Below, in pieces: positions 1,676 to 38,467 of a DNA stretch of 64,000 nucleotides (positions are counted from its first letter, which is position 1; each line of letters starts with the position of its first letter). The DNA comes from Yuukianura sp. NJ FZ-2021 (Eukaryota), in contig CM102286.1 of NCBI GenBank assembly GCA_046563655.1, forward strand, positions 15,066,001 to 15,130,000. The letters are read 5' to 3'. Under the pieces are notes generated by a model. That model was not told the DNA's origin. It saw only the letters and a list, made by a program, of their open reading frames with translations, and did not search any database. Made by a program: the position numbers and the translations under genes.

Positions 1676-4600
1676 ATCTGCGACTGCAACTCCAGGAACA
1701 GCTCAAATGCTTCGACGCACGCGTGGAGACGCAAGTTCTTTTGACGAATGAACTGCAAGACTACTTCCGGAAGAAGGCTGAAATTGAGCTGGACTACTCC
1801 AGGAACCTGGACAAACTAGCCAAGTCACTCGTCCTCAGGCAAAAGGAACTCAAACAAAGGCAAGTTATGAAAAAGTGTCTGAGGTCATTGACCTTTCCCA
1901 AAAAGAGAGGTCACTGGTACAATGAGGTCAACTGTCCATCTTCTCAAAGTTAGCGCTAGTTTTGACAAACGTTGTTTTTAAATATGTTTGATAAACGCAA
2001 TATTTTACCGTTGCGTTCCAAATTTTTGATGAGGTCAAAGATTAAAGATAAGTTTGACCTCGTTTTTAGACAAAATATTTGACTGACTTCCTTGTTGAGC
2101 ACAAAAGTGTAAACAAAAGTATAAAATGCTTAGCACCTATACAAAATATTTATGTTTTATAATAATATAAATATTATGTAATTAATATTATAATTGAATA
2201 TGTTTTAGGCGGGAACAGCTCCACTTGTTTTCTCTGTACAACTGCTGGCAGGAGTTGATTCAGGAGACAAAGAAGGAGAGTCAGGAGCATGGCGTCCTGG
2301 CAGAAGTGTACAACACGCATGTCACCACTAGACTCAGCATGGTCATGGAGGACCTCCAGAGAGTCTACAAACAAGTACTAATATTATATTAATGTATTAT
2401 AATATATTAATATATTAATGCATTTTATTCAATAGTGCCATGAGATTGGAACTGATTCTCACGAGGAGTTGCTCAAAGTTCTTCATGAGCTGCACACTTC
2501 GACTAAAACGTTTCACTTGTACCAGAGTGAGCACAGACAAACAGAATCCAAATTGAAATTGGTTGAATCTCAGAAAAAGAAACTGGAACTGATCATCCCC
2601 AAGGAAAAAATTGAAAAGTCCAAGAAAATCCGTCTAGTCGACAAGGAAATTCAAAAAGTAAGAAATTTTTAGAAAAAGGGATCTTTAAAAGAAATTTTTA
2701 GAAAAGTTGTTTGAAAATGATTTTGTTTTGTTTTCAGCGGCGTAACAAGTACACAGATGCTCGTTTCAAAGCACTAAAAGCGAAGAACGAGTACGTGCTG
2801 TGCATGGATGCGGCCAATGCGGCTGTTCAAAAGTACTTTGTGGATGATTTGTCAGACTTAATAGACGTAAGGCACGAATTTCAAAAAAAGAAGCACTTTT
2901 TACACGAATTTCAAAAAAAAATTAAGTTCAACACATAAATTATTCCTGAGGAAAAAATGTTATGTCCGGACCACGCCCAAGGTTCATTTTCGTGCATAAG
3001 TGGCTCGTTTCTGGTCGGTACTAGACCGTGGTAGATGAAAATGAAATTTTTATGAAATGAAAATTTGAATTGAAATTTTGAATTTTGGAGATGGGAATTT
3101 TGAAATTGTATTCCAGTGCATGGACTTGGGGTTCTACCAGTGCATCTCCCGTGCTCTCAACATGTACATCTCTACACAAGATCACATCCGAACTTCCACC
3201 GCCACTAACATGGCCACTCTTTCAAAATGTATTCTTGGGCTTGACTCGCGGCTGGACAAACAAAAGTTCCTGGAAGCAAACAACTCTGTTTTCATCATGC
3301 CCAAGAAAGTGGAGTTCCAGGCACTTAAGGGAGAAGAGGTAAAATTCAAATTCAAAATTAAAAAAAATGCATTTTTTAAAAACATGTTAATTTCAAGGTC
3401 CGTAAACAAAAAGAAAACTTTTTCTACACCAGGTTGTCCAATAACTCGAAGTTTTAAATTTTGTTTGAAGTAATAAATCTCTCATTCTATGGTAATTTTT
3501 TGGATGTTAATCTAAATGGGATTGGTGCTAAAAGTTGTTGGAAGCAAAATTTTTGAAAAGTCTGAGTTATTGGACAACCTGTTGTAGGAAATACAATCCG
3601 GTTGTCAAGGAACCTTGGTTAATTTGATTCAATTTTTGCCTTAGTTGGATCCGAATGAAGCAAATGCAGAACTGGAGACGATTGGATTCATCCGGCAAGA
3701 GCTGGAGCAGCGTCTGATTCAGCTCCACCGCCGATTAGACTCTCTCCGAATAGAGGCTGACGAAGCCTGGAAGACGCTGGAAACTGCAGAGTCGTCTTTA
3801 CTCCAACTGCTGACTGTGAATGACTACAGTGCAGAAGAGCACTTCCTGGAATCTAGTCACAACAGAACGTCCAAAACAGAATACTTGTTCAACACACAAC
3901 GACTCAGAGCAGAGACTGACGAGTTTCACTTATCCGTAAGTCTTTTTCAAAAAAAAATACAAATGAAGACTTTTGAGTTTTTGGATTTTTAAATTTTCCA
4001 GAAATTCCGGGACTACATGCTAGGCACAAACAGAATAGCAAGACTCCAGGCAAAGTACGACCACATTCGGAAAGTTCTGGGTGATTTGGATCCAAACAAT
4101 TTGTCACCCGGACTAGCCCAGACTTTAGCGGGTTCGAAGTTTTGAAAATGTTAAATTCAAAATAATTTTTTTTGAAAATTTTTTATGTTTTGGATTGTAG
4201 AACCAAGGAAAGTTATCAGGAGAAAGAGAATTGGACATTTCCAGAACAACAGAAATCCGCGTCTCTTCGGCGGTAGCTTGGAGGAGTACATTGAGTTCAC
4301 CAATCAAGAAATTCCAATCGTTCTCAAAAGTTGTATTCGCGTTATAAACTTATACGGTAAGACTTTTTTTAAAGTGAAAGTTAAAAAGTGAAAGTCTTGA
4401 GTTAAAAAGATAAATTTTGCAATGTTAGGGTTGCACCATCAAGGTATTTTCCGTGTGTCGGGATCTCAGATTGAAATTAACAATTTCAAAGATGCTTTTG
4501 AGAGAGGCGAAGATCCACTCATTGACATCAACGATGCTTCGGACATCAACAGCATCGCGGGAGTTTTAAAATTGTACTTGCGAGAACTACGAGAACCAAT

Positions 4601-7600
4601 ATTTCCCATCGTCTACTTTGAACAGTTCATGGAACTAGCTCGTAAAACACTCAAAGAATTTTCAGAAAACTGGTTTTTCAAAAAAAATTTTGAAAAAAAA
4701 ATTAAACGTTTGTGTTTTTTAGAATTGGAGTCCAAACATTTGTTTGTGATGAAACTACGGGATTTAATTACTTCTCTCCCTCGTCCAGTCTACATCGTTC
4801 TTCGCTACTTGTTTGCCTTCCTCAATCAGTAAGATTGACACCAGTTTTTAAAATTTGTTAAATTTTCAAAATTTAATGATTTCATAATTTGAAAATTCTT
4901 TTCGATAGCTTGTCAGAGTATAGTGATGAGAACATGATGGATCCATACAACATTGCCATTTGCTTTGGACCAACACTAGTCCCCGTACCGGAAGATAAGG
5001 ATCAGGTTTGTTTACAGTTTTTTTGTCGACCATGTTGTTGTTGACAGAATTGAATGTATAACATTTTGTTTTTGACGGAATTGTAGGTGCAGTACCAAAA
5101 TCTGGTCAACGAACTTATTAAAAACGTCATTGTGTACATGGAAGACATTTTTTCTGGAGACGAAGATTTTGGGGGAACGAGATACGAAAAATACATAAGC
5201 AAAGAACCAGATGAAGTGTAAGTACAATCTTAAAATTAAAAAAAAAAAGCACGCGTTAAAAAAGGATGGTTTCGGATTTTGGACATGACTTTCAGCGTGG
5301 AAAAGAGCATCAACCCGATAACACAACATTCTGAAATTTAACAGACGTCATGTAGCCTTAGAGTAGAATCGATGTTCAAAAAATTGGCGTGATGTGTTTT
5401 CGGGTTCTAGTCCAAAAGGGACGCCAAAGTTGACCATATTTTGATGGAAAGAATCACAATCTTTCATTTATTCTCGTGCAAAATAGTTTTTAACACTTGG
5501 GTTTTAAACACGTGCACATTTTGAAAGTTTCGATTGCAAACGTTGCACAACTAAAAAACAGGTTTTACTTTGTGCACAATTTCAAATTTCGGGTTTTTAA
5601 TTTTTATTTTGCACAATTTCTAACTTTTAAGCGTATCCGCTGCACATTTTCCTTGTTTAACGTTTTTAGAATGCACAATTTCTAGATTTTGTGTTATTCG
5701 CAGTGCACATTTCAAAAAGTTTACGTTCGAACATTGCACAACTTTCGTACCTTTTCTGCAGTTGTGTTGCACAAGATCAAACTTTCTGGTTGTCACATTG
5801 CACAGTTTCGAACCTTTTGTTTTTAAATTGCATATTTTCATAAGTTATAATAATAATGAGAATCAACCGATTGTAAACCGGATATACGTAAGTAACGTAA
5901 GCCCTGCTCAAGTCCGGCATAAAATAATTATCGGTGTCAGACAACGATAAGTATTGATTTTGGTAAATGAGATCCAATTCTAAATGAGGCCATTTTGTTT
6001 TTCATTGATTTCGAAGAAAGAGTCAAAAGTTTAAAGTATGTAGCAGTTTTAAATTTTTGAGGCAACTTTCAGCTTTTTGAAGAATTCATACTCCATTTTC
6101 TTAAGACAATTTTGTCGTAGAACGAAAATGAAATATTTTTTTTTAAAGAATTTTATATGAAGTCATATGAAACTAAAACTTCTATACAACTTTTCATACG
6201 AAACTGTGCAGGAAAATCGAGCATAAATTGGGGTTAACAGGTTAGGTTACCTTGGAGTTTTTAATTTGTTAGGGAAAATCATGAAAACAACAAAAAAAAG
6301 CGTGTTTTTGTTGTTTTCATACGCGGGATTTTTTTAACAATCGGTTTATTGCCTAACCTGTTGATGAAACAGTTTCCTGTCAAAACACCTTGGCTGCACC
6401 TGTTGACTGTATAACTGTGTTGTAGATAGTTCACGTTAATGCACTGACAAAAGAAAGGTGACTGACTACAGAAAGTCTGATCCATGAACGGCCAGACAGA
6501 CAGACAGGCAGGGCCATAAAGTAGCTTACGCTATTTAGAAATAACAGGTGTTTCACAATTTCGAGCTTTTCGAGTTTTGATGCTGCACCAGGCCGAAAGA
6601 ATTGTGCAACATTTTGCACATTTGTGAAAAAAACAGGCGATTTAAAACGTTTTATAACGTTATTAATTGGGCCGGAGAAAATACAAACAAACAAATGGCG
6701 CTGGGCCGGATTTTCTACAGAAACCCGAAACCATCCTTTGTAGTAAAAATTCAAGTTTGCCAATTTTTGAAATTTTCAGTGATGTAGACACTCCTGGCGA
6801 CGACTCCCATGACGATTTGGGTTCTGAACTTCTTTGCCCCTCTGAAGACGGTAAAAATCTCAACGTTTTTGAAATTCTAAAAAATCTGCATTTTGTTTAA
6901 AATTTGACGGCAATTCTTTGATTTGCAATTTGTTTTAGATTCTGTGTTTTTAAAAGAACGCGACATCAGTTTACAGGTTTTCCAAAGTGAGAAAAGAACG
7001 CCACCATTTTGTTAATTTTAGCTTTAGCTTTGCCTAGTTCAACTTTTTAGTAACTTATAATTTTTTTAGTTCTTTAAAATTTGTTCTAAAAACTTGTTTT
7101 AGAATCCGAGTACTTGGAGGGAATCGCTCAGTATGATTTTAAGGCTCGTTCAGACCGCGAAATCAGTTTTAAAAAAGGTGATGTCATCACTTTGTACTCT
7201 CAAGTCTCCAATGATTGGTGGAAAGGATCCTGCAATGGCATCAATGGCCTCGTGCCAGACAAATACATCATGCTCAAAATCAAGTACTTTTTTTTAAAAT
7301 TTAAAACAATTTCTAAGAAAAATGAACTTTTTTCAAAAAAATGTCAACCTTGTTTGAACAGAGACGAGGAACATCGTGAACGCCTGCTCTCTTCTCCATT
7401 TCTATTTGAAAAGAAACAGTCTATTCCGACACACCACCACTCCAGAACAGCCAGCGACTCTTTCTTGACCTCAAGGTCACTTCCCTCCCCCAGTCCAAAT
7501 TTAGCACTCTCAAAACTTCAGTTGACCACTTCAGGAGACTCTATGACCAGTTCAAATTCAACTGGGAGCAGGTCACCCGGAGTAGAGGTCAAAGAAGCTG

Positions 7601-8379
7601 AAATTTCAAGGTCACGGCTACCCCAAAACTTAGTCGAGGTTGCCGTCACCAACGGCGCCTTTCAGCGCGAACTAACGCCTCCTTTAGCAAATACCGTCAC
7701 GGTTTCACCCGAAACGAAACCGACCTTTGAAACCGAACCGGTTCAAGTCATCACGCAGACGCAGTTGGACGAATCCGTCGAAACGAAGATCATGGACGAT
7801 GACCTTGAGGGGTCAATCTCCATTGTCACTTCAGAACCAAAGTCTATAGACAACGACGCATCTTCCGAAGACGCCCGACACACTTTCCAGATCTCTCCCA
7901 CCCCAAAAGTCAATGTCCCACCAACCAGTCAGCCAAAAGTGGACCGACCAACAACGACAGCCGTACCGGTTGCCATGGCAACCACTACGCCTAAACTCCA
8001 AAATAACATTCAGTTCTGGGAGGCCAAGGCTAAGTTCTCCTCTGCCGCGGCCACTCCTGATTTGGTCATGGACCTTCCCATGGTTACTTCTTCGACGACA
8101 GTCGACGAAACTCCGGAGAGTCCCGATTCGGTTGAAACTGCTGCCGAATGCTTTGCTAAACAAAATCAAAGTACTTTGAAGAAGAACTACAAAAATCCAC
8201 TCAAAAAAGAAACTCCGGAGCAACAACCTTCGACATCATCTAAACCGCAAGTAAAAGTGAAACCGATTGTTCTGAAAAAGCCTAGTGTTCCTATCCACCT
8301 ACTGCCCAGAGGGAGTAACTATGACGAAGAGGAGTCTTCCAAAAGTTTCTCAGATGATGAAAAGACAACAAATTTGTAA
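1676..8379 (+). CDS. srGAP: SLIT-ROBO Rho GTPase-activating protein (F-BAR, RhoGAP, SH3); multi-exon, first coding exon not identified
   Basis: Exons encode an F-BAR segment (LQDYFRKKAEIELDYSRNLDKL), a RhoGAP domain (GLHHQGIFRVSGSQ, AGVLKLYLRELREP, ENMMDPYNIAICFGPTL) and an SH3 domain (AQYDFKARSDREISFKKGD...WWKG...GLVPDKY), separated by GT-AG introns; stop at 8379. Confidence 0.9.
3394..3617. mobile_element. Non-autonomous DNA transposon (MITE) with CAAGG termini, in an srGAP intron
   Basis: Ends caagg.../...ccttg; inner inverted repeat caggttgtccaataactc/gagttattggacaacctg; 8-bp duplication gttaattt on both sides; a related copy lies inverted at 43145-43371. Confidence 0.8.
5261..6739. mobile_element. 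Probable composite non-autonomous DNA transposon filling an srGAP intron
   Basis: 15-bp inverted ends aaaggatggtttcgg/ccgaaaccatccttt; internal run of TGCACA motifs (about 5510-5830); nested inverted pair aacaggttagg/cctaacctgtt (6236-6362). No clear target duplication. Confidence 0.4.
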
Positions 8380-11389: not shown

Positions 11390-12183
11390 GGTGCTCCTGC
11401 TCGTTCCCTACCTCTTTGGTCCTGATGCCAAAGCAAGGACTAGAAACTGGAGTAGCACTTCGACCGTGCGATCAGCGGTTCTTAATCGATTGAAATTGAA
11501 TTAAAACATCAACAAATGAGTAGGAATAGTTGCATCACATATTAAAACGTTATTTATTTTGAGTTTGGAAAAGAAGTTGGGGGGTTTGGAGTTGGGATGG
11601 TCCCCACATGCATTTTTCCCATTGCCACCTCACGTTCTTCACCACCCCCAACTCCAAAAGAGTAAAATCTGCCTTTGGTTTACTCCTTCCGTCTTCATAT
11701 AAAAGGGAACCTCAACAAAAATTTTCTCATTCACTCTTGTCTCTTCGTAGGGAGAGGAAGGCAGTGGAGACAAGGTTTCCTTGTAAACAATAAACATACT
11801 TCATCTGTTTCTTCTGTACATCTCTTTTAATTGTCATCTTTAATTAACTTTTCTTTTTAGTTAAGTAATCGATTGAATTACCAATCAAATGATTCAGGGG
11901 ATAGGTTCAGCACATATCAAAATAAGATCAAAGTAATTTGGCACAAAATGCGCGGCGTCATATTCAGAACTTCCAAATTCAAACCACAATTACTTCAGAA
12001 TTTGAAAATTCAGAGGGTTTAACCCAGTGTTCCCAGTTTCAGTCACTGGACATTCCGGCCGTCCGCCAGAAAACGTCTTTTGGACATTTTGGTCCAACCC
12101 CTTTCAGTCGACCGAAATGACCAAAACTAATTTTAACCCTACAGGAGGCCCGGGAGATTTGAAAATTTGAGAGGCGTGGCCAG

Positions 12184-12311
12184 TGTTAAGTGATGCTCGT
12201 ATCCTCGTTTCGCTTTCACTTGCTTCTTTTTATTGGTTCATTTCTACTTATTTTATACTAACTCTAATGTGGTGTGCGGTTAGGTGGCGGGCAGATAGAA
12301 CAGCCCTCACA
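12184..12311 (-). repeat. 3' LTR (128 bp)
   Basis: Identical to 20324-20451; preceded on the minus strand by a short purine run (TTAGGGAG), the probable polypurine tract. Confidence 0.95.
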
Positions 12312-12894
12312 CTCCCTAACGCAAAAAAAATTTTGACTTGTCCATAAGTGATTGTGTGCAAAAGAAGTGATGGAACGTGTCGTGTGTTTTGTGTAACAGC
12401 GGAAGTGGATTAAAGATTATGGCTGTCTCAAGGATTGTGTGTCTTGAGTAATGTAGTTTGTGGGACAGTGCAGTTGAATCCGTGAAGTGGAATGCGATGT
12501 ATCCTGGGGTGACTATCAGATACGTGTCTGATTATTAATTTAAATATACTTTACAATGGTTGTGAAATTATAATTCTAAAAGGTGTTAAAATTGCAGATT
12601 TTCATAAGGCGGGAATTTACATGTTTAGGATACGTGCATCATAACGTAAAGCATTACAATTTAAAATTAAAATGTTAATTATAGAAAGTTCAATTTAAAT
12701 GTATGTGTTTTTGTTTTTTACAGGTGCTGTGTAATGTGTATGTGGGTGAGAATGAGTACCTAAAACTTGTATTGAAACAAGTTTCCTTAATTGTAAGATG
12801 GAGAAAATTGGTAGCGTCCTTCAGTGGATTAGTCCACCTTTTTTCACATCTCCTAGAGTGAAAGTGCGTGTTGTGTGTTTGTATCCAGTGGTGA

Positions 12895-14886
12895 TTAGTA
12901 GAATATTTGGCTTTCCCTGGGTGGTTGAGGTGCTGGTTGTCTTTCTCTGTGCAGAGCAGGGCGAAGTATGGGTGAATGTTGAATAATCCGGAGAAGTGAA
13001 TGCTTGAGTCTGCATAAAAGCAAAAAAATGAAAATAAGTGTGATCAGGATCAAGATTAAAATCATGTCATCCAGTAGGTTGACAACAAAATTTGGTATGT
13101 CAAACGCTCTGGCTCCTGGCAGAAGATTCAGCATCGGGAAGAGTCCTCCTAGCATGTTGGGTTTTAGAACCATGAAGGTCATCCAGAGGGCCCATACATA
13201 GAAAATGATTTTCAAAATCCAATCCAAGAGAGAGGTGTGCGCCACAGTTAACGAGAATTGATTCATGATGGGCTGGATGTCTTGATGTGTGAGTACGGTG
13301 GTCTCATTAATTGGTGGCAGTGAAATGTTGATGTGATGGTTTAGTAAATGCCAATTTGGATTCAGGATTGAATGTGTGGGAATGTCATCGCAGCATTCGT
13401 CTTCTGTAATATTCGCGTGGGTCCACTGTATTGGAATTAGTAGTGTAGCATTGCTAGCGTCATGTTCTTGAGTACAGGGAAACGGTGTTGGAATTATGAT
13501 CTTGCCGTTAGCAGTAATTATGCAGTTGCATCGTAGTTTAATTAGAATTGTGCCGTAGGGTGTCGTGGTATTAATTGCATTGGGTGTTTCGTGCCTGCAT
13601 TCCTCTCGTAATCGTGTTGGTGGTTCTTGTTTTGGTAGCGTAATCGCGACGTAGAATTGACTGAGTTGTTGAATGTGAATTTGGTTGTCATGGAGGATAC
13701 ATTCAAAGAGACATGCCTTTTGAATTGTCTCAGTAGTGATTCGGTTTTGAAAAAGTGCTTGAATGCATTGTGGGTGTTGGTTGAACTCTCCGGTTTGGGT
13801 GGGAATGTGGCAAAGACGTGACTGTTTTAAATCGCATCCTCCGTCTCTGTTAACTGGTAGGTAGTTGTCCTTGACTTTGACGATGGTCATTTCCTGTAGT
13901 TTCACCGTGCATAAGTTGTCGTCATATCGGAAGATGATTGGCTTGAGATTATAGTATGTAGGTCGAAGATTCACAGGTATCAGGGGAATCTTGAGTCGAA
14001 TGAAAATGGACTTACTTCGAAATTGGCAAGATGTGAGTGGAGATTGGTAGTACCAACTTAGTGCTGAGATTGGGATTGCAAGATTATATAGTTTTGGGTA
14101 GACAATTTTGTGTAGTTTCGTGAGTTCTGTGTTGAGGATTGTGATCGGTACAAGGCTTCTTGGTAGCAAATGTTGTTGACAAGAGATTGTAGCCAAATGA
14201 AGTTGAAGTGCTCTTGCTAGTTTGAGTGTACTGTCCGTTATCAATAGAAGAGTAGCGTTGAGGTGATGATTGTGGTCTAAAAGTTGAGTCAAGTTGTTGA
14301 GGATAACGTCATGGAGTTGTTGCATGTTGGTATCAATTTCGTCGAATTTGGAATTAACAATCTTCGTCATGTTGATCTCGTGTTCATGTTGTTGGTGAAA
14401 GTTGTCGCGTAGCATGTTTGTGTAGTTCTGTAGGTTGAGTTCTTGAACTTCCATTTTTTGAACGGTGTTGAGAGATGCGAATCCGCAGCACCATTCATAA
14501 AAACTCCCGATGATGTCGATTCCGCGTTTACTTCGTTTGTAACCCTCGACAGGCATGAGGATGTCGTTGATTGTGGTAAAAGCTTCTTGAATGACTTGAT
14601 AAATGCCGCCAATGTTAGTTCTGGAGCGAATTTTTAGGTCGGCTTGATAGGGGATTTCAAAGAAAAGCGCATGACTAGTAGTAAATCCATAAACGTCTTG
14701 TATTTTTGTAATATGTGCGCCTCGGGATAACTCCGGAAAAATATCTTCAGATGAAGTAAGCAGTACTGCATTCCCCAGTAAAAAACAGATAAGTAGAACA
14801 GCAAAAGTATTTTGTACGAAACGTCGTTTCAAGACAATTTTGTTTTTATCAGCGGTGGCAGTAACTCTCTCTACTGCCAGAAGCAT
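12895..14886 (-). CDS. env: Env-like class I fusion glycoprotein (baculovirus F / errantivirus Env-like)
   Basis: N-terminal hydrophobic signal (FAVLLICFLLGNAVLL), furin site RSKR followed by a fusion-peptide-like GIDIIGSFYEWCCGFAS, heptad-rich region, Cys-rich ectodomain with NxS/T sites, C-terminal transmembrane segments; lies 3' of pol inside the LTRs. Confidence 0.85.
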   Translation of the reverse strand: MLLAVERVTATADKNKIVLKRRFVQNTFAVLLICFLLGNAVLLTSSEDIFPELSRGAHITKIQDVYGFTTSHALFFEIPYQADLKIRSRTNIGGIYQVIQEAFTTINDILMPVEGYKRSKRGIDIIGSFYEWCCGFASLNTVQKMEVQELNLQNYTNMLRDNFHQQHEHEINMTKIVNSKFDEIDTNMQQLHDVILNNLTQLLDHNHHLNATLLLITDSTLKLARALQLHLATISCQQHLLPRSLVPITILNTELTKLHKIVYPKLYNLAIPISALSWYYQSPLTSCQFRSKSIFIRLKIPLIPVNLRPTYYNLKPIIFRYDDNLCTVKLQEMTIVKVKDNYLPVNRDGGCDLKQSRLCHIPTQTGEFNQHPQCIQALFQNRITTETIQKACLFECILHDNQIHIQQLSQFYVAITLPKQEPPTRLREECRHETPNAINTTTPYGTILIKLRCNCIITANGKIIIPTPFPCTQEHDASNATLLIPIQWTHANITEDECCDDIPTHSILNPNWHLLNHHINISLPPINETTVLTHQDIQPIMNQFSLTVAHTSLLDWILKIIFYVWALWMTFMVLKPNMLGGLFPMLNLLPGARAFDIPNFVVNLLDDMILILILITLIFIFLLLCRLKHSLLRIIQHSPILRPALHRERQPAPQPPRESQIFY

Positions 14887-14990
14887 TTTGAATATAGTGT
14901 GGAATAAGGAAGATCTGGTTCTGGTGGAAGTGTTCGTGGGGCAGTCTCGCAGCTGCTAGAGACTGAGTTCGCCAGACTGACTTCGATTGA

Positions 14991-17900
14991 TTAATGGTGG
15001 ATTGTCCTGGTTCGTCGTGGCCTTAAGTTATATCCTGTTCGTTGGAGATCTTCGAGTGGTGCACCTGTTTCAGGGTATAACGTAGGCATACGGCGATATC
15101 TGTGGTTGGTGACTTCAATAGTCCGTTGGTCAATTAGTTGAGGTAAATCCGTATCTAACCCGTCGCTGGCCAGGCTTGGGGTTGGTGATGGATCTTCTGT
15201 CAATTGTGGTGAATCTAAAATTGTTGAACCAAGTTCTTCTTCCTGGTGGTGTTGCGGTTCTTCTGTGATTTCGGCGTCATCCGGATAAAAAAATTCTTCT
15301 GTGATGTCCGGGTGGTCATTTTGTGAGCGAGGGTGATAAGGTTTCAATCTGTCCACGTGTACGGTTTCACGTAGGATGTCCTTATTAGCTTTGAATTCAA
15401 CTGTAAAGTTGACTGGCGATAGTTGCTGTACTATAGTATATGGTCCAAAGAAATACGGCATGAGCTTGGAAGAAAGACCTTTTTTCTTTTTAAATTTTCG
15501 GACCAATACTTTGTCGCCAATTGTGAAAGGATGTGGGGTCATATTGGAATTGACCCTGTCAGCATATCGCTTCTGGGCTGCTTCTATTCTCTGTTTAACA
15601 TCCTGTCGAATTTGTTTGAGTCTGTTTTGCAGGTCCCGGATATATTGGTGAGGTTGTATGATTGGGAATTGAGACTCATCAGGGAGAATAGCTTCGTATC
15701 CGAAAAGTACAGAATATGGCGTTCGTCCTGTGGTACTCTGGACTGATGTGTTGTATGCAAGTTGGATATGCGGAATGAATTTGTCCCAATCGGATTGGTT
15801 AGAACGTACATACATGGAAATACTGTCTGTGATGGTTCCATGTGCACGTTCGATGAGTCCTTGAGCTTGAGGGTGGTATGCTGTGCTAACTCGATGTTCG
15901 ATTCCTAGTGTTTTGTTCAAAGTCTTGATTAGGTCCCCTGTAAAATGAGTTCCACGATCCGATTGAATGATACGTGCACATCCGAAACGGCAAAAAATGT
16001 CATCTGTAAGGAATTTGGCAATGGTAGGAGTAGTGATGTCCTTGACAGCTTTCATCTCGATCCACTTGGATAGGTAGCATATAACTGTTATGACATATTT
16101 GTTCCCCTGCGAGCTACGTGTGAATGGTCCTAAAATGTCAATTTGTAAATGTTGAAAAGGTTGCGTAGGCACCTCTATTAATTGCATGTCCCCGTATGGT
16201 TTTCGTCTTGGAATTTTGCGAGCTTGACATTGGTTACAAGTTTGAACGTGTCCTTTGATATCCGACGTCATCGATGGCCAATAGTACCGTTGATTGATTT
16301 TAAGCAACGTCTTGTAGAATCCTAAGTGTCCTGCGATAGGATCATCGTGGTGATCTTTCAAAATCTCTTCTCGTATTTGCTTGGGAATAACCAGTTTGGG
16401 CACATTATCACGATCAAGGTGATATAATGTGTCCTGTAAAATGCAATAACGTCTGGGTAATCGGCCATTCGAGTTGGACAATGTTTGAATTATGTTTAGG
16501 AGTTCAGGATCTTGTTTCTGAAATTCTGTGATTGGATAGTGTTGTACGTTCATGATCTTGACGGTTTCCATGTTTGTTGGCTTAACCGGAGCTCCTTCGT
16601 CTGCGCTAGGACACCGCGAAAGTGCGTCTGCGACATGATTATTTGCTCCCTTGATGTAGTAGATGCCCTGAATGTTGAATTCCGATATTTTCAGCGCCAT
16701 CCTGGTGAGTTTAGGACTAATTTCGTCCTTTTTGGCTTGTTGTATCCAGCATAAGGCGTGATGATCTGTGAAGATTTTAATGGGTTGTCCATCCAAGAAC
16801 TGACGTAGTTTTTTCAGTGCAAATACAATGGCTAATAATTCGAGCTCTGTCGTGGTCCATTTTTGTTCCGCTGGAGTTAGCGTACGAGAAATAAATGCGA
16901 TCGGACGTTCGACATTGTTGTGAATCTGACTTAGTGTAGCTCCAATACCAATGTTACTTGCGTCAGTCGTGAGGCGAGTTTCTAAGCCTGGTTGGAATAA
17001 TGCTAAAACGGGTTTGCTTAAAATTGCTTGTTTCGCAAAGTCAAAGGCACGTTGGTGCTCATCATTCCAATGGAATTTGATTTTCGTAGAAAGCAGTGAC
17101 GTCAGCGGTTTCATTTCTTTGGCGTAGTTTTTGATGAAGCGGCGATAATGGTTGAACAGGCCAAGTGATTGTTGTAATTGTTTTACTGTGGTTGGTCGTG
17201 GCATTTTTGAGACTCCCGTGAGAACATCTTGATCCATTTGAATGTTACCATTTCCAATAAGAAATCCAAGAACCTTTGTTTGCTCGTAAGCGAAGTGACA
17301 TTTTCCAGGATGTAATGTCATCCCTTCTTCCGTAAACCTTTGTAAAACTCGTTCCAGCTTGACGAGATGCTCTTCGAATGTACTGCTGAAAACGATTACA
17401 TCATCAATGTAGCTTAGCGCGTACTCAGGTTTGAGTCCGGCTAAAATAATGTCCATCAGTTTACTGAAATGACCGGAGGCTCCAGAAATACCCATAGGAA
17501 GCACTTTGTACTGATATAATCCGTCTGGAGTGGCGAAAGCAGTTTTTTCTTTGTCTTTGTCTGAGATGGTTGACTGCCAAAATCCTGATTTTAAATCCAT
17601 TGTTGTGATGAATTTGGCATCTCGGAGGGTGGATAGAATGTCGTCGATGCGTGGAAGTGGATAAGCAGTAATGTTGGTTGTGATGGTGTTGAGAAAACGG
17701 AAGTCGGTAACTACTCGTTTGGCGTTTGGATCGTCTTTCTTTGACACTAAATGAATCGGACTCGACCAAGGAGAATGGCTGGGTTCTATAAGATCTAAAT
17801 CCAGCATTTTCTGAACTTCTCGTCGGATAATTTCTCTTTGCTTTTCTGATGCTGGGTAAGGTCTGATTTTGCGGGGAGGGTGATTTCCTGTATCAATCGT

Positions 17901-19013
17901 GAATGGCAATTTGTCGGTGCGTCCCATGTAGTCGGGTTTCCATGAAAATGATTTGGGATATTTCTGAATCAGTTGCAGTAATAAATCCTTCTGCGCATGC
18001 GTGAGGTTTGGATTGATATTAGTTTTGAATTCCATTGGGGTAGTGGAGACATTATGAACGGAAGCATGAGAAGATGATGTTGTGACATTTGAATCTCGTT
18101 CTTCTTGTCCTAGTAGCATGTTCTCGTGGAGACGTAATTCGTCGTTGCTAGGGTTGATAACTTCAATTGCTTCGGTCTGCCTGGTTATCAGCATGTGTGG
18201 CACGAGAAGTCGGTGTTTGTCGTACACGGAAGCAACAGGCTGAATAATGACGTCCGTATCGTCTTGAATGTGGTTGGTAATTACTGGAATCAGCACTCTG
18301 GAACGTGGAGGTAAAATTGTGGTTTTCCGTACTCTGATATTGGCAATTGGTAATTGAATTTGAGGTGACACGTGTGATATCGTTGGATAAGTGCGGTTGA
18401 GGTGAATCCCATGGTCTTCCCAGAAGTTTATCTTTGGATTGCAATATGGAATTTCACCTGCTAGTGGAGAGAAGATAAGTCGGCGTGTGGAGTCAAGGCC
18501 AAAAGCATAAGCTTCTAGGAAGTCCAGTCCCAGGATCAAATCAAAGTCCATGTCGTCTACAATCATGGTCGGGTGCTTGACTTGAAGTTTTCCGAGTTGG
18601 ATTGGAAGAAAGCAGATTCCATCATCTTTGAGGGGGTCCTTGAGCTGTGCTAATTGAATGAAGGTGTTGGGAATGGTGTAATGTTCTTGAGCAATATGCG
18701 GTTTGATGAGAGTGAGTGATGCTCCGCAGTCCACTAAGGCTATGACTCGTCGTTTGAGAATATCAACGGCAACCAGAATTTTCGGTCCAGTTTGGGAATT
18801 TTGAAGTGAGTTTTTGTGAATTTCGATTGTAATTTTAGGATTGGAACTAGAGTGATTGCTTGAAGAAATTGAAGTGAATGAATTAGGTTGGATTGAGTTT
18901 GAACGTTGGTAATTAAAGATGGCGGGCTCTAGTCCCGCCGTGGCATGTTTCCCTGTTGCGTTGAATATGAAGGAGCGTTTTGTTGTTGTGCAGGATGATT
19001 CTGATCGTTCCAT
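14991..19013 (-). CDS. pol: Pol polyprotein (protease, reverse transcriptase, RNase H, integrase); probably translated by -1 frameshift from gag
   Basis: Protease ALVDCGAS; RT PWSSP, LPRIDD, DLKSGFWQ, YIDD; RNase H TDAS, ELELLA, TDHHAL; integrase H...H...C..C, IDILGP, SDRG, GLIERAH, GPY module. Confidence 0.97.
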   Translation of the reverse strand: MERSESSCTTTKRSFIFNATGKHATAGLEPAIFNYQRSNSIQPNSFTSISSSNHSSSNPKITIEIHKNSLQNSQTGPKILVAVDILKRRVIALVDCGASLTLIKPHIAQEHYTIPNTFIQLAQLKDPLKDDGICFLPIQLGKLQVKHPTMIVDDMDFDLILGLDFLEAYAFGLDSTRRLIFSPLAGEIPYCNPKINFWEDHGIHLNRTYPTISHVSPQIQLPIANIRVRKTTILPPRSRVLIPVITNHIQDDTDVIIQPVASVYDKHRLLVPHMLITRQTEAIEVINPSNDELRLHENMLLGQEERDSNVTTSSSHASVHNVSTTPMEFKTNINPNLTHAQKDLLLQLIQKYPKSFSWKPDYMGRTDKLPFTIDTGNHPPRKIRPYPASEKQREIIRREVQKMLDLDLIEPSHSPWSSPIHLVSKKDDPNAKRVVTDFRFLNTITTNITAYPLPRIDDILSTLRDAKFITTMDLKSGFWQSTISDKDKEKTAFATPDGLYQYKVLPMGISGASGHFSKLMDIILAGLKPEYALSYIDDVIVFSSTFEEHLVKLERVLQRFTEEGMTLHPGKCHFAYEQTKVLGFLIGNGNIQMDQDVLTGVSKMPRPTTVKQLQQSLGLFNHYRRFIKNYAKEMKPLTSLLSTKIKFHWNDEHQRAFDFAKQAILSKPVLALFQPGLETRLTTDASNIGIGATLSQIHNNVERPIAFISRTLTPAEQKWTTTELELLAIVFALKKLRQFLDGQPIKIFTDHHALCWIQQAKKDEISPKLTRMALKISEFNIQGIYYIKGANNHVADALSRCPSADEGAPVKPTNMETVKIMNVQHYPITEFQKQDPELLNIIQTLSNSNGRLPRRYCILQDTLYHLDRDNVPKLVIPKQIREEILKDHHDDPIAGHLGFYKTLLKINQRYYWPSMTSDIKGHVQTCNQCQARKIPRRKPYGDMQLIEVPTQPFQHLQIDILGPFTRSSQGNKYVITVICYLSKWIEMKAVKDITTPTIAKFLTDDIFCRFGCARIIQSDRGTHFTGDLIKTLNKTLGIEHRVSTAYHPQAQGLIERAHGTITDSISMYVRSNQSDWDKFIPHIQLAYNTSVQSTTGRTPYSVLFGYEAILPDESQFPIIQPHQYIRDLQNRLKQIRQDVKQRIEAAQKRYADRVNSNMTPHPFTIGDKVLVRKFKKKKGLSSKLMPYFFGPYTIVQQLSPVNFTVEFKANKDILRETVHVDRLKPYHPRSQNDHPDITEEFFYPDDAEITEEPQHHQEEELGSTILDSPQLTEDPSPTPSLASDGLDTDLPQLIDQRTIEVTNHRYRRMPTLYPETGAPLEDLQRTGYNLRPRRTRTIHH
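18921..18953 (-). promoter_or_regulatory. -1 programmed ribosomal frameshift signal (gag-pol)
   Basis: Minus strand caG GGA AAC in the gag frame (18953-18947), 7-nt spacer, then hairpin GGCGGG-actagag-CCCGCC (18939-18921); pol is in the -1 frame. Confidence 0.85.
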
Positions 19014-20263
19014 TGAGAATCAACATAATTTTGTGTCATGCGAGAGCGGTATTCGTTGCGTTGATTCTGGTTAAATCCGTTTTGACCTCCTCGTCTTTGT
19101 TGTCTTTGTCGATAGTTGAAGGATGCCCTCATGTTTTGTTGTTGATAACAATTGGTAGAGTAATGGCCTCGTTTTCCACAGAAATAGCAAGTAGGTACAA
19201 AGGATCCATTTCTGTACTGCTGATTGTTTGATTGGTTGTTCCTGTTGTAGCCACGCCCTCCAAAGCTTCTGTTTCGTCCCCGATAGTTGCTGCCACGGTT
19301 GGATTGAACGCCTGCGAAATGAATTTTAAGTTCTTTGACAGCGGTTGTGAGTTGCTCAATTGGGTCTGTAGCGGTAGATGTAGCAGTAGCCACTTTTGCT
19401 GGATTAGCTGAAGATGTTTTGGGAACAGCATCGATGTCCTTCATCCCCTTTCCTTCGTATTCCGTAAGCATGTTGAGTAATGCTGCATAAGTCTCGGGAA
19501 TGCCACGATATTGTACGTATCGTCTGACAGCAAGGGTGCATTGCTTCACTATAGCTTCACAAAGCTCATTTTCGTTGTATTTAGTCCAATTGTCGCCAAA
19601 GAGATATCGAATTCTCACAACGAATGTAATAGAAGATTCTTCCGGATCTTGCGTGTGAGTGTGCAAATTGGTCAGAAGAAGGTCCTTCTCGTCTTTGTCT
19701 TTTGGGCAGTGTTCTGTGAAACTTGTTTGAAAATCGCGCCATGATGTCCCTGTGTCACTAATTTTATCCTTGTAAATGGAAAACCATTGATCTGCTGCTG
19801 GATGTTCAAACGAATTAACAAATTCGCGTTTCCTTCTAGCATCATCGTAATTGAGTCCATCTGCCCAAGTGTCGAATTTTTCAATGTGGCGTTTGATGGA
19901 TTTGGTAGTAAGTTTTTGTTTGTGTGTTGGTCGCTTATCACCTTTGATAACTAACGTTTGAGACGCTGGAGGTTGTGATGTGGATTGTGACATGATGTTA
20001 AAATTCAATTCTGGTGTTGTTAGATTATCTTCTAATTGGTTGATTGGAAAAACAGGATCGTCTTGGAAGTCAATGGAATCAACAAAGTGATCTTCTTCTG
20101 TAATGGATCCTTGAGGCGAACGTTCCGGGTTGGAATTTGTTGACCGAATCCGACTGGAATTAAGTCCTTCGGGGAACTCTAATTGTTGACCGCTTCCTTT
20201 TGTAGCACTACGTGTTTGAGGTTTTTGTTTTGGAATTTTAGAATTTTGCATTCCATTACACAA
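18929..20263 (-). CDS. gag: Gag polyprotein with CCHC zinc knuckle
   Basis: First ORF after the 5' LTR and primer site; capsid-like region (WRDFQTSFTEH...QDPEESSITFVVRI) and CYFCGKRGHYSTNC (CX2CX4HX4C) flanked by RG/N/Q-rich sequence. Confidence 0.92.
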   Translation of the reverse strand: MCNGMQNSKIPKQKPQTRSATKGSGQQLEFPEGLNSSRIRSTNSNPERSPQGSITEEDHFVDSIDFQDDPVFPINQLEDNLTTPELNFNIMSQSTSQPPASQTLVIKGDKRPTHKQKLTTKSIKRHIEKFDTWADGLNYDDARRKREFVNSFEHPAADQWFSIYKDKISDTGTSWRDFQTSFTEHCPKDKDEKDLLLTNLHTHTQDPEESSITFVVRIRYLFGDNWTKYNENELCEAIVKQCTLAVRRYVQYRGIPETYAALLNMLTEYEGKGMKDIDAVPKTSSANPAKVATATSTATDPIEQLTTAVKELKIHFAGVQSNRGSNYRGRNRSFGGRGYNRNNQSNNQQYRNGSFVPTCYFCGKRGHYSTNCYQQQNMRASFNYRQRQQRRGGQNGFNQNQRNEYRSRMTQNYVDSQWNDQNHPAQQQNAPSYSTQQGNMPRRD

Positions 20264-20311
20264 TTTTTATACTAAATTGGGAAACTAAAAATATTCAAAA
20301 ATCTTGGAGGC

Positions 20312-20322
20312 TTTCGGCACCA
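20312..20322 (-). promoter_or_regulatory. Primer binding site complementary to the tRNA-Phe 3' end
   Basis: Minus strand TGGTGCCGAAA, 1 nt after the 5' LTR; complements the ...UUUCGGCACCA end of eukaryotic tRNA-Phe. Confidence 0.8.
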
Positions 20323-20323
20323 T

Positions 20324-20451
20324 TGTTAAGTGATGCTCGTATCCTCGTTTCGCTTTCACTTGCTTCTTTTTATTGGTTCATTTCTACTTATTTTATACTA
20401 ACTCTAATGTGGTGTGCGGTTAGGTGGCGGGCAGATAGAACAGCCCTCACA
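20324..20451 (-). repeat. 5' LTR (128 bp)
   Basis: Identical to 12184-12311; contains TATAAAA and AATAAA on the minus strand. Confidence 0.95.
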
Positions 20452-23400
20452 CCAGGTTTGGCACACGGCGCATGTGCATACCGTGTATGCATTTTGGTCG
20501 GACATTGCGGTCATTTAAGTCGTTTCAGACATTTCAGACCAAAATTTGAAAAAGTGACCGAAACTGGGAACACTGGTTTAACCTTAACTACCAACAGATT
20601 TTTGTCTTTGCAGTACACAGAGCATGCGAAAGTGTGGGAATGAACCACTTGCAGTTTAGCAACTTTGAAAAATCGTAAAAAGTGTTGTTTTTTGGAAAGT
20701 TTTTTTTTTGTTGGTAAAAGTGTAGGGATTTAGGGATTTGCATGTAAATGAGTGAGAGAGACAATGGAAACCACAGAGGAAGAGAAAGCATCTGAAATGG
20801 AGATGTGTTCAAATGTGAGAATTAGAATTCAACAACACTGGCTCAAGCATGGAGCATGGCTAATTGGAAATCCCAAGCGATCCGCTTTCATCTTTAGCAC
20901 AAACTAAAACGCCCCGGGAAATCAAAACGAATTTGAATTTTCATCTTCACGACTTCAACAGTTCTCCAATTTCAGAAATCGAAATGACCAAACACGCTGG
21001 AAACGTCTGCAGGTTTTTCATTTCTTTAAACATGAATAAAAACTTCAATTTGTTTTTACTTTTTTTGAAACTGCAATTGGAGCTTTGTTTTTTTAAATTG
21101 GAAATTTCATTGCTGCTTTCAGTTGAAAGTGGCTGTGCTTTTACCTTGTAATTTCCAAAAGACGAAATCACTTCGATGGAACTTCAAACATTTCACACTT
21201 TCCCTTTTGTTTACTCAGGAAACTAGTTTCATTATGCTACAAAAACCCTACAACTTCCTCTTTCATTTATTCCAACTAACAGTGATCAACTTTTTTCAAA
21301 ATGTTTCAAATTTGAAAATATACATTTTAGAAAACGATTTGAGACTCAAAGTGTAATTTCCGTTCTGGAATTGTAAACTAATCAAATTATGTCACGTTTC
21401 TCATTACTCAATGTCCTCATATTCCGAATTCATTCGAAGCATGACACAGTTGAAACAAATTTAAACTAAACAGCAAATATAAAATTCAGCAGAACAAAAA
21501 ATGTTTTTAACTGTAGTGAGTTTTCGGAAGCTTTCACCGGAAGCCTAAGTGTTCGTGAATTATGAGTGAGTAAAAAGTGGTTTGTGGTGAAAGTGATTTG
21601 GATGGTGGAGGATAAGAATGTTGAGCTGACCATTCCTCTGCCAAATCGGATATGTCCGACTCCTCTATTATGAATGAGTCCATTTCGGATTATTTTCCAT
21701 GTAATGTCAGTGACCAGAGAAAGTGGAGACACAATTTGTGCTTTCTTCAGGGAAACGCAGTGGAGCAGAGGAGAATGGAGATGGAAGTATTTTCTACTTG
21801 GAAGATTCACAAAAGATTCCAATTAATTCATCCATCTTACCACAAAACACTATTTTACAATTCACAAATTTCAAAACTTCATCATCTTTCAGAAAAATTG
21901 GAAAATATTTTATCATCCCTCGAAATGAGATGAAAAGATATTAAGACTGAGAAACAATTTTTCAAAGTTTTCACTTTTTTAAACCCAAAAACGATCAGAA
22001 GAAGAAAAAATGTCCATTAAAATGGCCATCTCTGGTCTGAATTGGTTTCAATTTGTTCCGCCTGTCAGTTGGACATGATCAAAATGCTTCCTTTCCACCT
22101 CCACAGTGTCCATTAAGACAAAGTTACTCCCTCTTCCTGTCAAGCCTCACCAAACACCAATTTCAAACACAACCAAACTTCTTTTTAGAACAAAAACACT
22201 CCTGTTCAAAGTTTGTGCAAAAACGAACACGTTTAGGCCACCGATTTCTAAAAATTCAACTTCTTTTTAGAACTTTCTCTTTCGTTGCACTTTTGTTTCT
22301 GGTTAGGTTATTTTTGAATGGCTTTCCAAAAAGCTAATTTTTGTTAAACTGTTTGAACTTTCTTTGAAGCGGGAAAAGAGAGAAGTTGAGGAGTTAATTA
22401 CTGAAGAAAGGCCTGGAAGTTGTCACTGTCAGCCGCTTTTAGGAGAAAAGCAGAAGAACAGTCACAAGATTTCCCCTGGGCTTTGGCTTTTGGTCAAAGA
22501 AATAATTAAAACCAACGCACAAAATTCATTAACAAAAACCTCATCTTCAACTCTTCACTTTCCTTTTCAAATTGTTCCAAAATTGTCATTTTCATTCTAA
22601 TTTCTACTCAAAAGAATCTTCGTTTCAAAAAGTTTATTTTTCAAGAAGAATGTTAAAGGAAATACGTTGGACTTTTGAGTTTTGTAAAAAGCGTGTCTTG
22701 TTAAAGTGTCACCACTTTCTCTTTTGGAGGCCAATTAAACGCTTTCCTCCACCCTGGGGGGAGAGTTGTGCTAAAAGTGAAAGTGTGAAAGTGGCTCAAA
22801 TGAATTCGAAGACGACAGGAAACCGACAATAAATTTACCAAAAGTCTCCCCGGAACTAATGAAAATTCTTCTGCGCATGAAAACAAATTATCATAAAATT
22901 AAACTCTAATTCTAGTCTTTTCTTTAGTCGGCAACTTTTACCTTTTAGTCAATAAAATTTTTACAGAAAAGAGACAAAAAAAGACAAAGAACCAGAAAGT
23001 TTAACTTTTATTTTACACTTTGAAGTTTCCACGTTTAGGCAAAAAGACTAAAAAAAAGTTTTGATAAAATTTTTTCAGCTTGCTCTAGATTCTTGAAATA
23101 AAAATTTTGAAAACATTTTCGGATCTTGCAAGGGTTTTGTATGAGAAAATTGTTTTATTATTTACTATTGTCTGAGTTTCTTGTGTTCCTTGGAGATTGC
23201 TGAAGAAGAGAGCAATTTGAGTGTAAATTATGAAGAGATTTGAAGTTTTAGCAGTAGAAAGTTGTAGCATAAGGTGAAAGTTAAGGAAGTGCTCGGTGGG
23301 AGGTGTGAATGGGAGAGATTGCTTAGAGATTAGAATTGTGTTGATGGTGATGAGGAGAGGAAGATTCATATTTCATCCCTCCACTTTCTCCCACTTTCAC

Positions 23401-36765: not shown

Positions 36766-38467
<1,702 letters not shown>

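Follow-up and report, generated by a model that had tools for sequence, protein, structure and literature searches.

A full-length Ty3/gypsy element with its own F-type envelope gene, probably of the non-classical 'ancient errantivirus' type

Introduction

Elements of the gypsy group carry gag, pol and env in that order, encode an F-type Env and generate a 4-bp target duplication. An element of this layout lies on the minus strand of the 64,000-nucleotide stretch of Yuukianura sp. DNA analysed here (the window), and the question it raises is whether it represents an envelope-carrying lineage of its own, as the original prediction proposed, or a further member of a kind already known. A compact animal genome is suggested by the host genes in the window (RhoGAP/SH3, DBR1, P450 and a Cys-loop receptor). 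A search of the Atlas with a glutamate dehydrogenase exon gave clusters with bacterial labels only, and Rfam gave 0 matches at gathering score over the whole window.

The proposal of a distinct, novel lineage has been overtaken by the literature, since a published catalogue across Metazoa lists Ty3/gypsy lineages that carry env and lie beyond the errantivirus clade of insects, several Ty3/gypsy lineages having given rise to such elements according to the available parts of that study (Chary & Hayashi, eLife 2026, preprint 2023; PMC13524379), and some non-errantivirus Metaviridae carry env, with Osvaldo cited in the ICTV profile (PMC7879559). The element is probably a full-length, apparently replication-competent Ty3/gypsy with its own F-type Env, of the non-classical 'ancient errantivirus' type rather than of the Drosophila gypsy/17.6/ZAM clade.

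Element boundaries and insertion site

The features of the element and of its insertion site are collected in Table 1. One direct-repeat family, with copies spaced 8140 bp, corresponds to the LTRs, which start with TG, end with CA and show 0/128 mismatches, and the CTGG duplication is intact at both ends. Contigs from public sequencing runs contain the empty site, connecting 12179 to 20452 with 8272 bases skipped and 4 letters shared, which is the form expected for an 8268-bp insertion with a 4-bp duplication, and this joint fixes the ends of the element. The target was a high-copy, MITE-like host repeat, and a 29-bp inverted repeat pairs 12019-12047 with 20553-20581. Independent run contigs also match long stretches with 0 differences, over 4125 bases for example. 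Read depth does not equal copy number, and the uncovered parts are uninformative. The runs listed for the element comprise 5 DNA rows from 2 studies and none of RNA.

Table 1. Features of the element and its insertion site (positions in the window).
Feature	Position	Strand	Basis or remark
Whole LTR element	12184-20451	minus	8268 bp
5' target-site duplication CTGG	20452..20455	(-)	Flank letters and empty-site joint with 4 shared letters
5' LTR, 128 bp, TG..CA	20324..20451	(-)	Direct repeat
Primer-binding site TGGTGCCGAAAGCC	20309..20322	(-)	One base past 5' LTR; tRNA-Phe-like
gag, 440 aa	18929..20251	(-)	ORF; 30% identity to L001 ORF1
Single CCHC zinc knuckle CYFCGKRGHYSTNC, Gag 355-368	19148..19189	(-)	Canonical CX2CX4HX4C
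Candidate -1 frameshift heptamer G GGA AAC	18947..18953	(-)	In gag register, within gag/pol overlap; putative function
pol, 1340 aa from first ATG (frame open from 19019)	14991..19013	(-)	-1 frame relative to gag
Protease active-site triplet D-C-G, Pol 95-97	18723..18731	(-)	Replaces usual D-T/S-G
'Mini' domain bridging RNase H and integrase, Pol about 828-875	16389..16532	(-)	AlphaFold model, pLDDT 87.4
Canonical GPY motif FFGPYTIV, integrase C-terminal module, Pol 1190	15438..15446	(-)	Motif and Pfam SH3_Tf2-1, Integrase_p58_C
env, 663 aa, predicted F-type class I fusion glycoprotein	12895..14886	(-)	ORF, relatives, AlphaFold, Foldseek
Furin-type cleavage site RSKR, Env 118-121	14524..14535	(-)	Fusion peptide GIDIIGSFYEWCCG (GIDIIG start) directly after
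Putative polypurine tract GTTAGGGAG	12312..12320	(-)	Short, purine-rich; adjoins 3' LTR; putative function
3' LTR, 128 bp	12184..12311	(-)	Direct repeat; same sequence as 5' LTR
3' target-site duplication CTGG	12180..12183	(-)	Flank letters and empty-site joint
Host repeat, left half, high-copy, MITE-like	12025..12183	(.)	Insertion target of element
Host repeat, right half	20452-20575	(.)	Other flank of element

The first 11 nt of the primer-binding site complement the 3' end of tRNA-Phe, TTTCGGCACCA, taking the tRNA end as given in the available parts of the eLife supplementary table. The element combines TG..CA LTRs, a short target duplication, a tRNA primer site and a purine tract, as is characteristic of Ty3/gypsy. 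The Troyka superfamily was considered and rejected, as the portion of its description at hand gives 3-bp duplications and CG..CG ends, against the 4-bp duplication and TG..CA ends found here.

The element had also been called very recent. The absence of differences in 128 bp bounds LTR divergence only at below about 2.3% (95%), and LTRs of this length are a weak clock, so that it is the intact frames, more than LTR identity, that carry this part of the claim.

Gag and Pol

The element has three ORFs without interruption, 440, 1340 and 663 aa long, in agreement with the original prediction. In Gag, the zinc knuckle scores 19.6 bits against Pfam zf-CCHC, slightly under the 20.8 cut-off, and no capsid match was found for the protein in Pfam. 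The domain order of Pol according to Pfam is protease, reverse transcriptase, RNase H, integrase (HHCC and DDE core) and an SH3/GPY tail, and its best solved relative in a PDB sequence search is the Ty3 Gag-Pol 7q5b (E 3.7e-122, over Pol 371-1226). By this order and by its similarity to Ty3, the element is a Ty3/gypsy (Metaviridae) LTR retroelement. The D-C-G triplet of the protease also occurs in two relatives, the metagenome contig L001 and P0004, which argues for a variant tolerated in the lineage. The CCHC Gag, the GPY tail, the tRNA-Phe-like primer site and the 128-bp LTRs noted in the original prediction were all seen, on the minus strand.

[quoted passage not shown] In the available parts of Chary & Hayashi (PMC13524379), classical errantiviruses are described with an RNase H followed by a five-stranded 'pseudo' RNase H, and 'ancient errantiviruses' with an RNase H and a 'mini' domain made up of an N-terminal helix and three small strands. 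In the AlphaFold model, the stretch leading from RNase H to the HHCC domain shows only helices followed by three short strands, a pattern that agrees with the published description of the 'mini' domain, the class being called from secondary structure rather than superposition.

The envelope protein

Env contains a hydrophobic segment at 23-47 (signal or anchor), 9 N-X-S/T sites, 18 Cys, a long helix, and two hydrophobic segments near the C-terminus (556-575 and 596-635). A search of the representatives library yielded 406 relatives at E<=1e-3, and in at least 90% of the 105 that were aligned R121 of the cleavage site and C133/C134 are kept. No Pfam model matched Env itself, even at E<=10, neither Baculo_F (PF12259) nor Fusion_gly. 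The Baculo_F cut-off was passed by 7/46 scanned relatives, and the direct phmmer matches P0123, P0126 and P0131 (E 1e-35 to 5e-31) are themselves above it; in the absence of a Pfam match of its own, the link between Env and Baculo_F is transitive only.

Structural comparison extends this picture. The AlphaFold model of Env (pLDDT 77.5) gave 177 Foldseek matches in the PDB at E<=0.001, the best at 2.4e-07, and all PDB matches among those listed are paramyxovirus or pneumovirus F proteins, aligned at 8-14% identity and with low TM-scores (0.2-0.45). In BFVD a glycoprotein that bears the label 'megalopteran chu-related virus 119' ranks first (E 1.9e-22), with baculovirus F behind it at about 1e-12. 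Model and relatives together support the assignment of ORF3 as an F-type class I fusion protein. The original prediction had read the frame as F-like from RSKR|GIDIIG and made this depend on a class I fold; the predicted structure has the F fold. Influenza HA2 was rejected as a homologue, being represented only by weak, coiled-coil-like PDB profile matches (E about 0.005-0.03). Word-indexed protein searches returned 0 matches among 8000 candidates with the single Env and 0 among 7997 with the Env alignment A1.

Relatives and the origin of env

The nearest relative found is L001, with identities of 48% in Pol, 30% in Gag and 29-30% in Env. Its ORFs stand in the same order, its Gag has a CCHC, its protease reads DCG, its pol lies in the -1 frame and its Env is of the F type. 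Its primer site differs (TGGTGGAGGCGC...), and its 5' LTR measures at least about 205 nt against 128 bp here. A second relative, P0220, is a Pol-Env fusion protein with 35% identity in Pol and 24% in Env. In the Pol tree, the element groups with P0001/P0002 (support 96), and this group falls in a clade of 8 rows (support 100) to which P0220 likewise belongs. The named Pol relatives are arachnid proteins with 37-40% identity, with no Drosophila element among them. An F-type env ORF occurs on only 1/60 related metagenome loci, 13 of the 60 being at least 6 kb long.

In a bolder reading, which we consider unlikely, the element, L001 and P0220 would form a retrovirus-like lineage of some small invertebrate, not yet described and active at present. 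It would be marked by a conserved D-C-G protease, by LTRs of a minimal 128 bp and by an Env of the F type that is structurally nearest to the arthropod 'chu-related' RNA virus glycoprotein, not to baculovirus F. If true, this branch would have seen an exchange of glycoproteins by negative-strand RNA viruses with Ty3/gypsy elements.

It is also unlikely that a CCHC-Gag Ty3/gypsy recently and independently took up an F-like glycoprotein gene from an arthropod virus, for instance one of the baculovirus or negative-strand RNA type. The scarcity of env among the related loci is in keeping with such an event, as are the rank of the chu-related glycoprotein above baculovirus F and the several Ty3/gypsy lineages that contributed env-bearing elements in the available account (Chary & Hayashi, PMC13524379). 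Against it, the closest Pol, Gag and Env all share one contig, L001, and the separate env capture entertained in the original prediction is contradicted, if meant as recent. Env identity also falls along with Pol identity from L001 to P0220, so that any capture would be older than a split of 35-48% Pol identity, and the closest Env relative, only 30% identical, leaves no recent donor in sight. A deep, ancient independent env capture may nonetheless have taken place.

It is improbable that the element is a divergent member of a classical named insect family, either Errantivirus sensu stricto or an Osvaldo-like one. The gag-pol-env order, the F-type Env and the 4-bp duplication are shared with the gypsy group, and Osvaldo is itself a non-errantivirus with env in the ICTV profile (PMC7879559). 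Errantiviral Gags, on the other hand, are described without CCHC arrays and with the GPY/F motif lost in the available sections of Llorens 2008 (PMC2577118), and this element keeps both. LTRs of the Zam group average 318 bp and have AGT.. ends with no TG..CA in the parts of Benachenhou 2013 (PMC3601003) at hand, against TG..CA and 128 bp here; both sources agree with what the original prediction stated of classical errantiviruses. The bridge, moreover, has a 'mini' domain and no pseudo-RNase H of the kind described in the available text, and the named Pol relatives are arachnid. An inert relic or assembly chimera with frames open by chance is very unlikely: the lack of RNA runs among those listed and the non-canonical protease motif might suggest one, but chance does not account for three long open frames over about 8.3 kb together with identical LTRs and a perfect duplication, independent run contigs agree without differences, and DCG is conserved in relatives.

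Proposed replication and significance

Taking the element as a replication-competent, env-bearing Ty3/gypsy, a replication cycle may be proposed. The 5' LTR holds a TATA box (TATAAAA, position 55) and an AATAAA signal (position 78), and transcription would both start and end in the 128-bp LTRs. Gag would be translated directly and Gag-Pol produced by a -1 frameshift at G GGA AAC, while a host tRNA-Phe would prime reverse transcription and the integrase would make the 4-bp duplication. Env would presumably be expressed from a subgenomic (spliced) RNA and routed into the secretory pathway by its N-terminal hydrophobic segment, after which a furin-like protease might cut it at RSKR and free the fusion peptide. 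Particles could then fuse with other cells through Env and might be infectious.

This copy, intact and with identical LTRs, is a candidate invertebrate endogenous retrovirus that may still move, in a host other than Drosophila, and a possible test case for F-type envelopes on Ty3/gypsy cores that keep the ancestral CCHC nucleocapsid, GPY tail and 'mini' domain. The current picture is unchanged, since env-bearing Ty3/gypsy lineages are already held to be old, widespread and co-diverging with env. What the element adds is a divergent family, whose nearest sequences found reach 48% identity in Pol and 30% in Env, along with some unusual details, namely a DCG protease and LTRs that are very short.

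Comparison with known systems

The predicted Env resembles the F proteins of paramyxoviruses, pneumoviruses and baculoviruses (Ld130) in its fold, in the furin site right before a hydrophobic fusion peptide, in its long central helix and in its C-terminal anchor, and differs from them in having two C-terminal hydrophobic segments. As for the retroelements, we know of no Mag element described with env. The element resembles Mag-type elements, by description only, in its short LTRs, in their termini and in its CCHC Gag. In the available parts of the sources, Mag LTRs have training-set means of 174 and 213 bp, a TGT.. start and an ..AACA end (PMC3601003), and Mag usually has two CCHC arrays (Llorens 2008, PMC2577118), in contrast to the single array and the env gene found here.

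With the classical Drosophila errantiviruses (gypsy, ZAM, 17.6 and Idefix) the element shares three ORFs, a baculovirus-F-related Env and, by its predicted coding capacity, a retrovirus-like life cycle. It is set apart from them, as far as the available descriptions go, by its Gag CCHC, canonical GPY, TG..CA termini and far shorter LTRs, by a tRNA-Phe primer in place of Ser/Lys/Leu, and by a 'mini' domain in place of the pseudo-RNase H; the CCHC-free Gag, lost GPY/F and pseudo-RNase H bridge that characterise errantiviruses are all missing from it.

As regards the catalogue of Chary & Hayashi (PMC13524379), the tRNA-Phe primer does not distinguish the element, as the label Phe_GAA occurs 9 times in the available part of the supplementary table. 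The 12-nt primer string of the element has 0 occurrences in the element table, Env motif strings from the fusion-peptide region gave no match in the eLife supplement, and Gag CCHC and GPY have 0 occurrences in the main text. The 128-bp LTRs are shorter than the minimum of 189-190 bp in 2/34 table parts, and shorter LTRs, or the same element, may stand in the other parts.

It is to the 'ancient errantiviruses', as the available text describes them, that the element is most fully comparable. Like them, it has intact gag, pol and env in that order, its env being of the F type where F-type or gB-type is expected, and the Env carries a furin site and fusion peptide. The RNase H and 'mini' bridge, a primer among varied tRNAs that include Phe, and an Env diverging with Pol are further likenesses. 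The combination of CCHC, GPY, TG..CA and a 'mini' domain fits this group as described, so that the kind is one already described, and the element, judged by its features rather than by a named reference tree, is a new, divergent member of a known env-bearing Ty3/gypsy group.

Element Structure and Insertion Borders

The window repeat comparison revealed only one direct-repeat family bracketing the element region, corresponding to a pair of LTRs that are identical to each other (0/128 mismatches), have TG..CA termini and carry TATAAAA and AATAAA, at LTR positions 55 and 78 respectively. CTGG is present at both borders as a target duplication. The primer site TGGTGCCGAAAGCC begins one base past the 5' LTR, with its first 11 nt complementary to the tRNA-Phe 3' end TTTCGGCACCA, as given in a portion of the eLife supplementary table (Chary & Hayashi, PMC13524379), while a short purine tract, GTTAGGGAG, directly adjoins the 3' LTR. 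The interior is composed of three open frames of 440, 1340 and 663 aa. The original prediction of identical 128-bp LTRs, an intact target duplication, a tRNA-Phe primer site and three uninterrupted ORFs was therefore confirmed.

Many contigs from public sequencing runs end at 12025 and 20575, near a 29-bp inverted repeat. Together, these indicate that the element is nested in a host repeat of very high copy number, with summed contig depth in the thousands, which looks like a MITE given its copy number and the inverted repeat near its ends. Three runs (X1, X3 and X4) have a contig in which 12179 is followed directly by 20452, with 8272 bases left out and 4 letters shared at the joint; this empty-site form independently confirms the element borders. 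Since flank depths are in the thousands, these contigs represent other, uninterrupted copies of the MITE-like repeat; the joints fix the element ends and carry no information on insertion polymorphism.

Features of the window, with Env features given as residue positions
Feature	Position	Strand	Remarks
Env-bearing element	12184-20451	minus	8268 bp
5' LTR	20324-20451	minus	128 bp, after trimming shared flank
3' LTR	12184-12311	minus	128 bp, after trimming shared flank
Host repeat	12025-12183 + 20452-20575		~285 bp
Inverted repeat	12019-12047, pairing with 20553-20581		29 bp
Env hydrophobic segments	23-47, 556-575, 596-635 (residues)		
Env R-x-K/R-R site	118-121 (residues)		RSKR, single occurrence, then GIDIIGSFYEWCCG
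RhoGAP-domain and SH3-domain host exons	3069-8376	plus	upstream of element
DBR1 C-terminal domain exon	33705-34145		
Glutamate dehydrogenase (GDH) gene	36766-38464	plus	at least 3 exons, small NADP type
tRNA-Pro call (ARAGORN)	37302-37374	plus	anticodon GGG, between two GDH exons
Cytochrome P450 exon	49008-49472		adjoins WS/DGAT ORFs
WS/DGAT catalytic + C-terminal domain ORFs	49868-51548	minus	wax ester synthase / acyltransferase type

Gag and Pol

Gag contains one canonical CCHC knuckle, CYFCGKRGHYSTNC, scoring slightly below the zf-CCHC Pfam cut-off (19.6 against 20.8 bits). The pol frame overlaps gag in the -1 frame, and the heptamer G GGA AAC, in register within the overlap and 25 nt upstream of the gag stop, is a candidate site for -1 frameshifting. 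Pfam domains in Pol occur in the order aspartyl protease, RVT_1, RNase H, Integrase_H2C2, rve, SH3_Tf2-1 and Integrase_p58_C, with YIDD, an HHCC finger and FFGPYTIV also detected, and the closest solved structure by sequence is Ty3 Gag-Pol (7q5b, E 3.7e-122). The predicted combination of a CCHC Gag with a GPY integrase tail is thus present.

The protease triplet is D-C-G instead of D-T/S-G. A simple motif screen over residues 1-700 of the best 120 of 2054 Pol matches (among 6879 candidates) found DTG in 54, DSG in 21, DCG in 2, DIG and DGG in 1 each and none in 41; the protease of the sister element on metagenome contig L001 reads VLDCGA, and is also DCG. From these sequences, DCG is read as a lineage variant and not as damage, with putative protease activity. 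A model of Pol residues 600-940 (pLDDT 87.4) comprises a five-strand RNase H, a disordered linker, and helices with three short strands, followed by the HHCC domain; the modeled bridge between RNase H and the HHCC domain has a mini-domain pattern.

The Envelope Protein

Env has 9 N-X-S/T sites and 18 cysteines. No family match was obtained against Pfam up to E<=10, with a CCG hit only, at chance level, and a word-indexed protein search returned zero matches. Scanning all 1.84 billion representatives with phmmer yielded 406 relatives at E<=1e-3, 220 at <=1e-10 and 11 at <=1e-30, the best being 30% identical. Seven of the 46 relatives scanned with Pfam, which include a Pol-Env fusion (P0220), pass the Baculo_F cut-off, and an eighth matches the model at a score under it. 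In a 105-sequence alignment, the furin arginine, a CC pair and 12 further Cys/Pro/Trp positions are conserved in at least 90% of rows.

The AlphaFold model built on this alignment (pLDDT 77.5) has a central helix of 62 residues. Foldseek gave 177 PDB matches at E<=0.001 (best E 2.4e-07), those listed being all paramyxovirus or pneumovirus F proteins with TM-scores of 0.2-0.45, low values that are unsurprising for a protein able to adopt more than one conformation. In BFVD, the top matches (E 1.9e-22 to 3e-16) are glycoproteins whose labels name chu-related or other arthropod RNA viruses, with baculovirus F ranking after them at ~1e-12. The motifs, the Baculo_F-passing relatives and the fold matches identify ORF3 as an F-type class I fusion protein, in agreement with the F-like, RSKR-bearing ORF3 proposed originally; the refuting case named with that proposal, an ORF3 lacking the class I fusion fold, does not apply. 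The best BFVD match is labelled 'megalopteran chu-related virus 119' glycoprotein. Chuviridae-like glycoproteins are described as gB-like in a section of Chary & Hayashi (PMC13524379); either two glycoprotein types occur in chu-related viruses or this record is itself retroelement-derived.

Relatives and Env Acquisition

The best Pol match (P0001) is 48% identical, followed by unnamed metagenome proteins and arachnid proteins (37-40%). P0001 is encoded on contig L001 (8238 bp), whose three ORFs (581, 1170 and 745 aa) follow the order seen in the element: the first has a CCHC knuckle and is 30% identical to the element Gag, and the third, 100% identical to the best Env match (P0121), is 29% identical to the element Env. 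L001:1-8238 runs from within the 5' LTR to just past env, with the second LTR absent. Its primer site, TGGTGGAGGCGC, differs from that of the element, and close relatives therefore use different tRNA primers. In a FastTree Pol tree of 62 rows, P0001 and P0002 are the nearest neighbours of the window element (SH-like support 96); the further relative P0003 joins next (96), and this group lies with P0220 in one 8-row clade (support 100). P0220 is 35% identical to the element in Pol and 24% in Env.

The L001 and P0220 identities indicate that Env similarity drops in step with Pol and that the three genes travel together, which argues against a recent env capture; the separate capture considered in the original prediction is unlikely as a recent event. 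An F-type env ORF of at least 150 aa occurs in 1 of 60 related metagenome loci (L001 only), and since just 13 of the 60 reach 6 kb, this count is a weak guide to env patchiness.

Age and Activity

The insertion had been proposed to be very recent. The LTRs are indeed identical, but 128 bp bounds their divergence only to below 2.3%. Runs from the same sample contain contigs with 0 differences to the element over up to 4125 bases, beside contigs ~8-10% diverged over env and gag (12213-14270 and 19073-20101), suggesting that this genome also houses an older subfamily. A copy of gag plus the 5' LTR comes from a run whose label names a different organism, and shows 56 differences and 18 gaps across ~1.6 kb. 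The coexistence of these copies indicates that the family has older and younger members.

Other Genes in the Window

The host genome appears compact, as introns look short. The best solved relatives of the glutamate dehydrogenase are Plasmodium and bacterial enzymes, and its neighbours in the Atlas are clusters with bacterial labels. Such a gene is unusual in the company of animal-type ones (a Cys-loop receptor, for example), and could stem from an ancient transfer or be a trait of the lineage. The tRNA-Pro call is doubtful, since no tRNA in the whole window reaches the Rfam gathering score.

Comparison with Known Elements

Errantiviral Gags are described as devoid of CCHC arrays, and errantiviruses as having lost the GPY/F motif, in a passage of Llorens 2008 (PMC2577118), and portions of Benachenhou 2013 (PMC3601003) report a mean LTR of 318 bp without TG..CA for the Zam group, and Mag-type LTRs averaging 174-213 bp with a TGT start and AACA end. 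These statements back the errantivirus features assumed originally. In contrast to classical errantiviruses, the element has CCHC, GPY, TG..CA and 128-bp LTRs, and its proposed distinctness from them is upheld.

Novelty of kind is not. Sections of Chary & Hayashi (eLife 2026, PMC13524379) describe Ty3/gypsy elements with intact gag, pol and env in most animal phyla; their Env is F-type or gB-type, several Ty3/gypsy lineages contributed to them, and Env divergence tracks Pol; env genes outside genus Errantivirus had also been noted in the ICTV profile (PMC7879559), where U3 alone spans 200-1200 nt. In the same sections of Chary & Hayashi, 'insect errantiviruses' combine RNase H with a pseudo-RNase H, and 'ancient errantiviruses' combine RNase H with a mini domain, in which an N-terminal helix is joined by three small strands, the pattern seen in the modeled Pol. 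The main text of that study makes no mention of CCHC, zinc or GPY. As the label Phe_GAA stands 9 times in its table, the Phe primer is not new, while the shortest LTRs within 2 of 34 table parts are 189-190 bp, making 128 bp short for the env-bearing class as represented in those parts. The element is a new, divergent representative of an already described kind.
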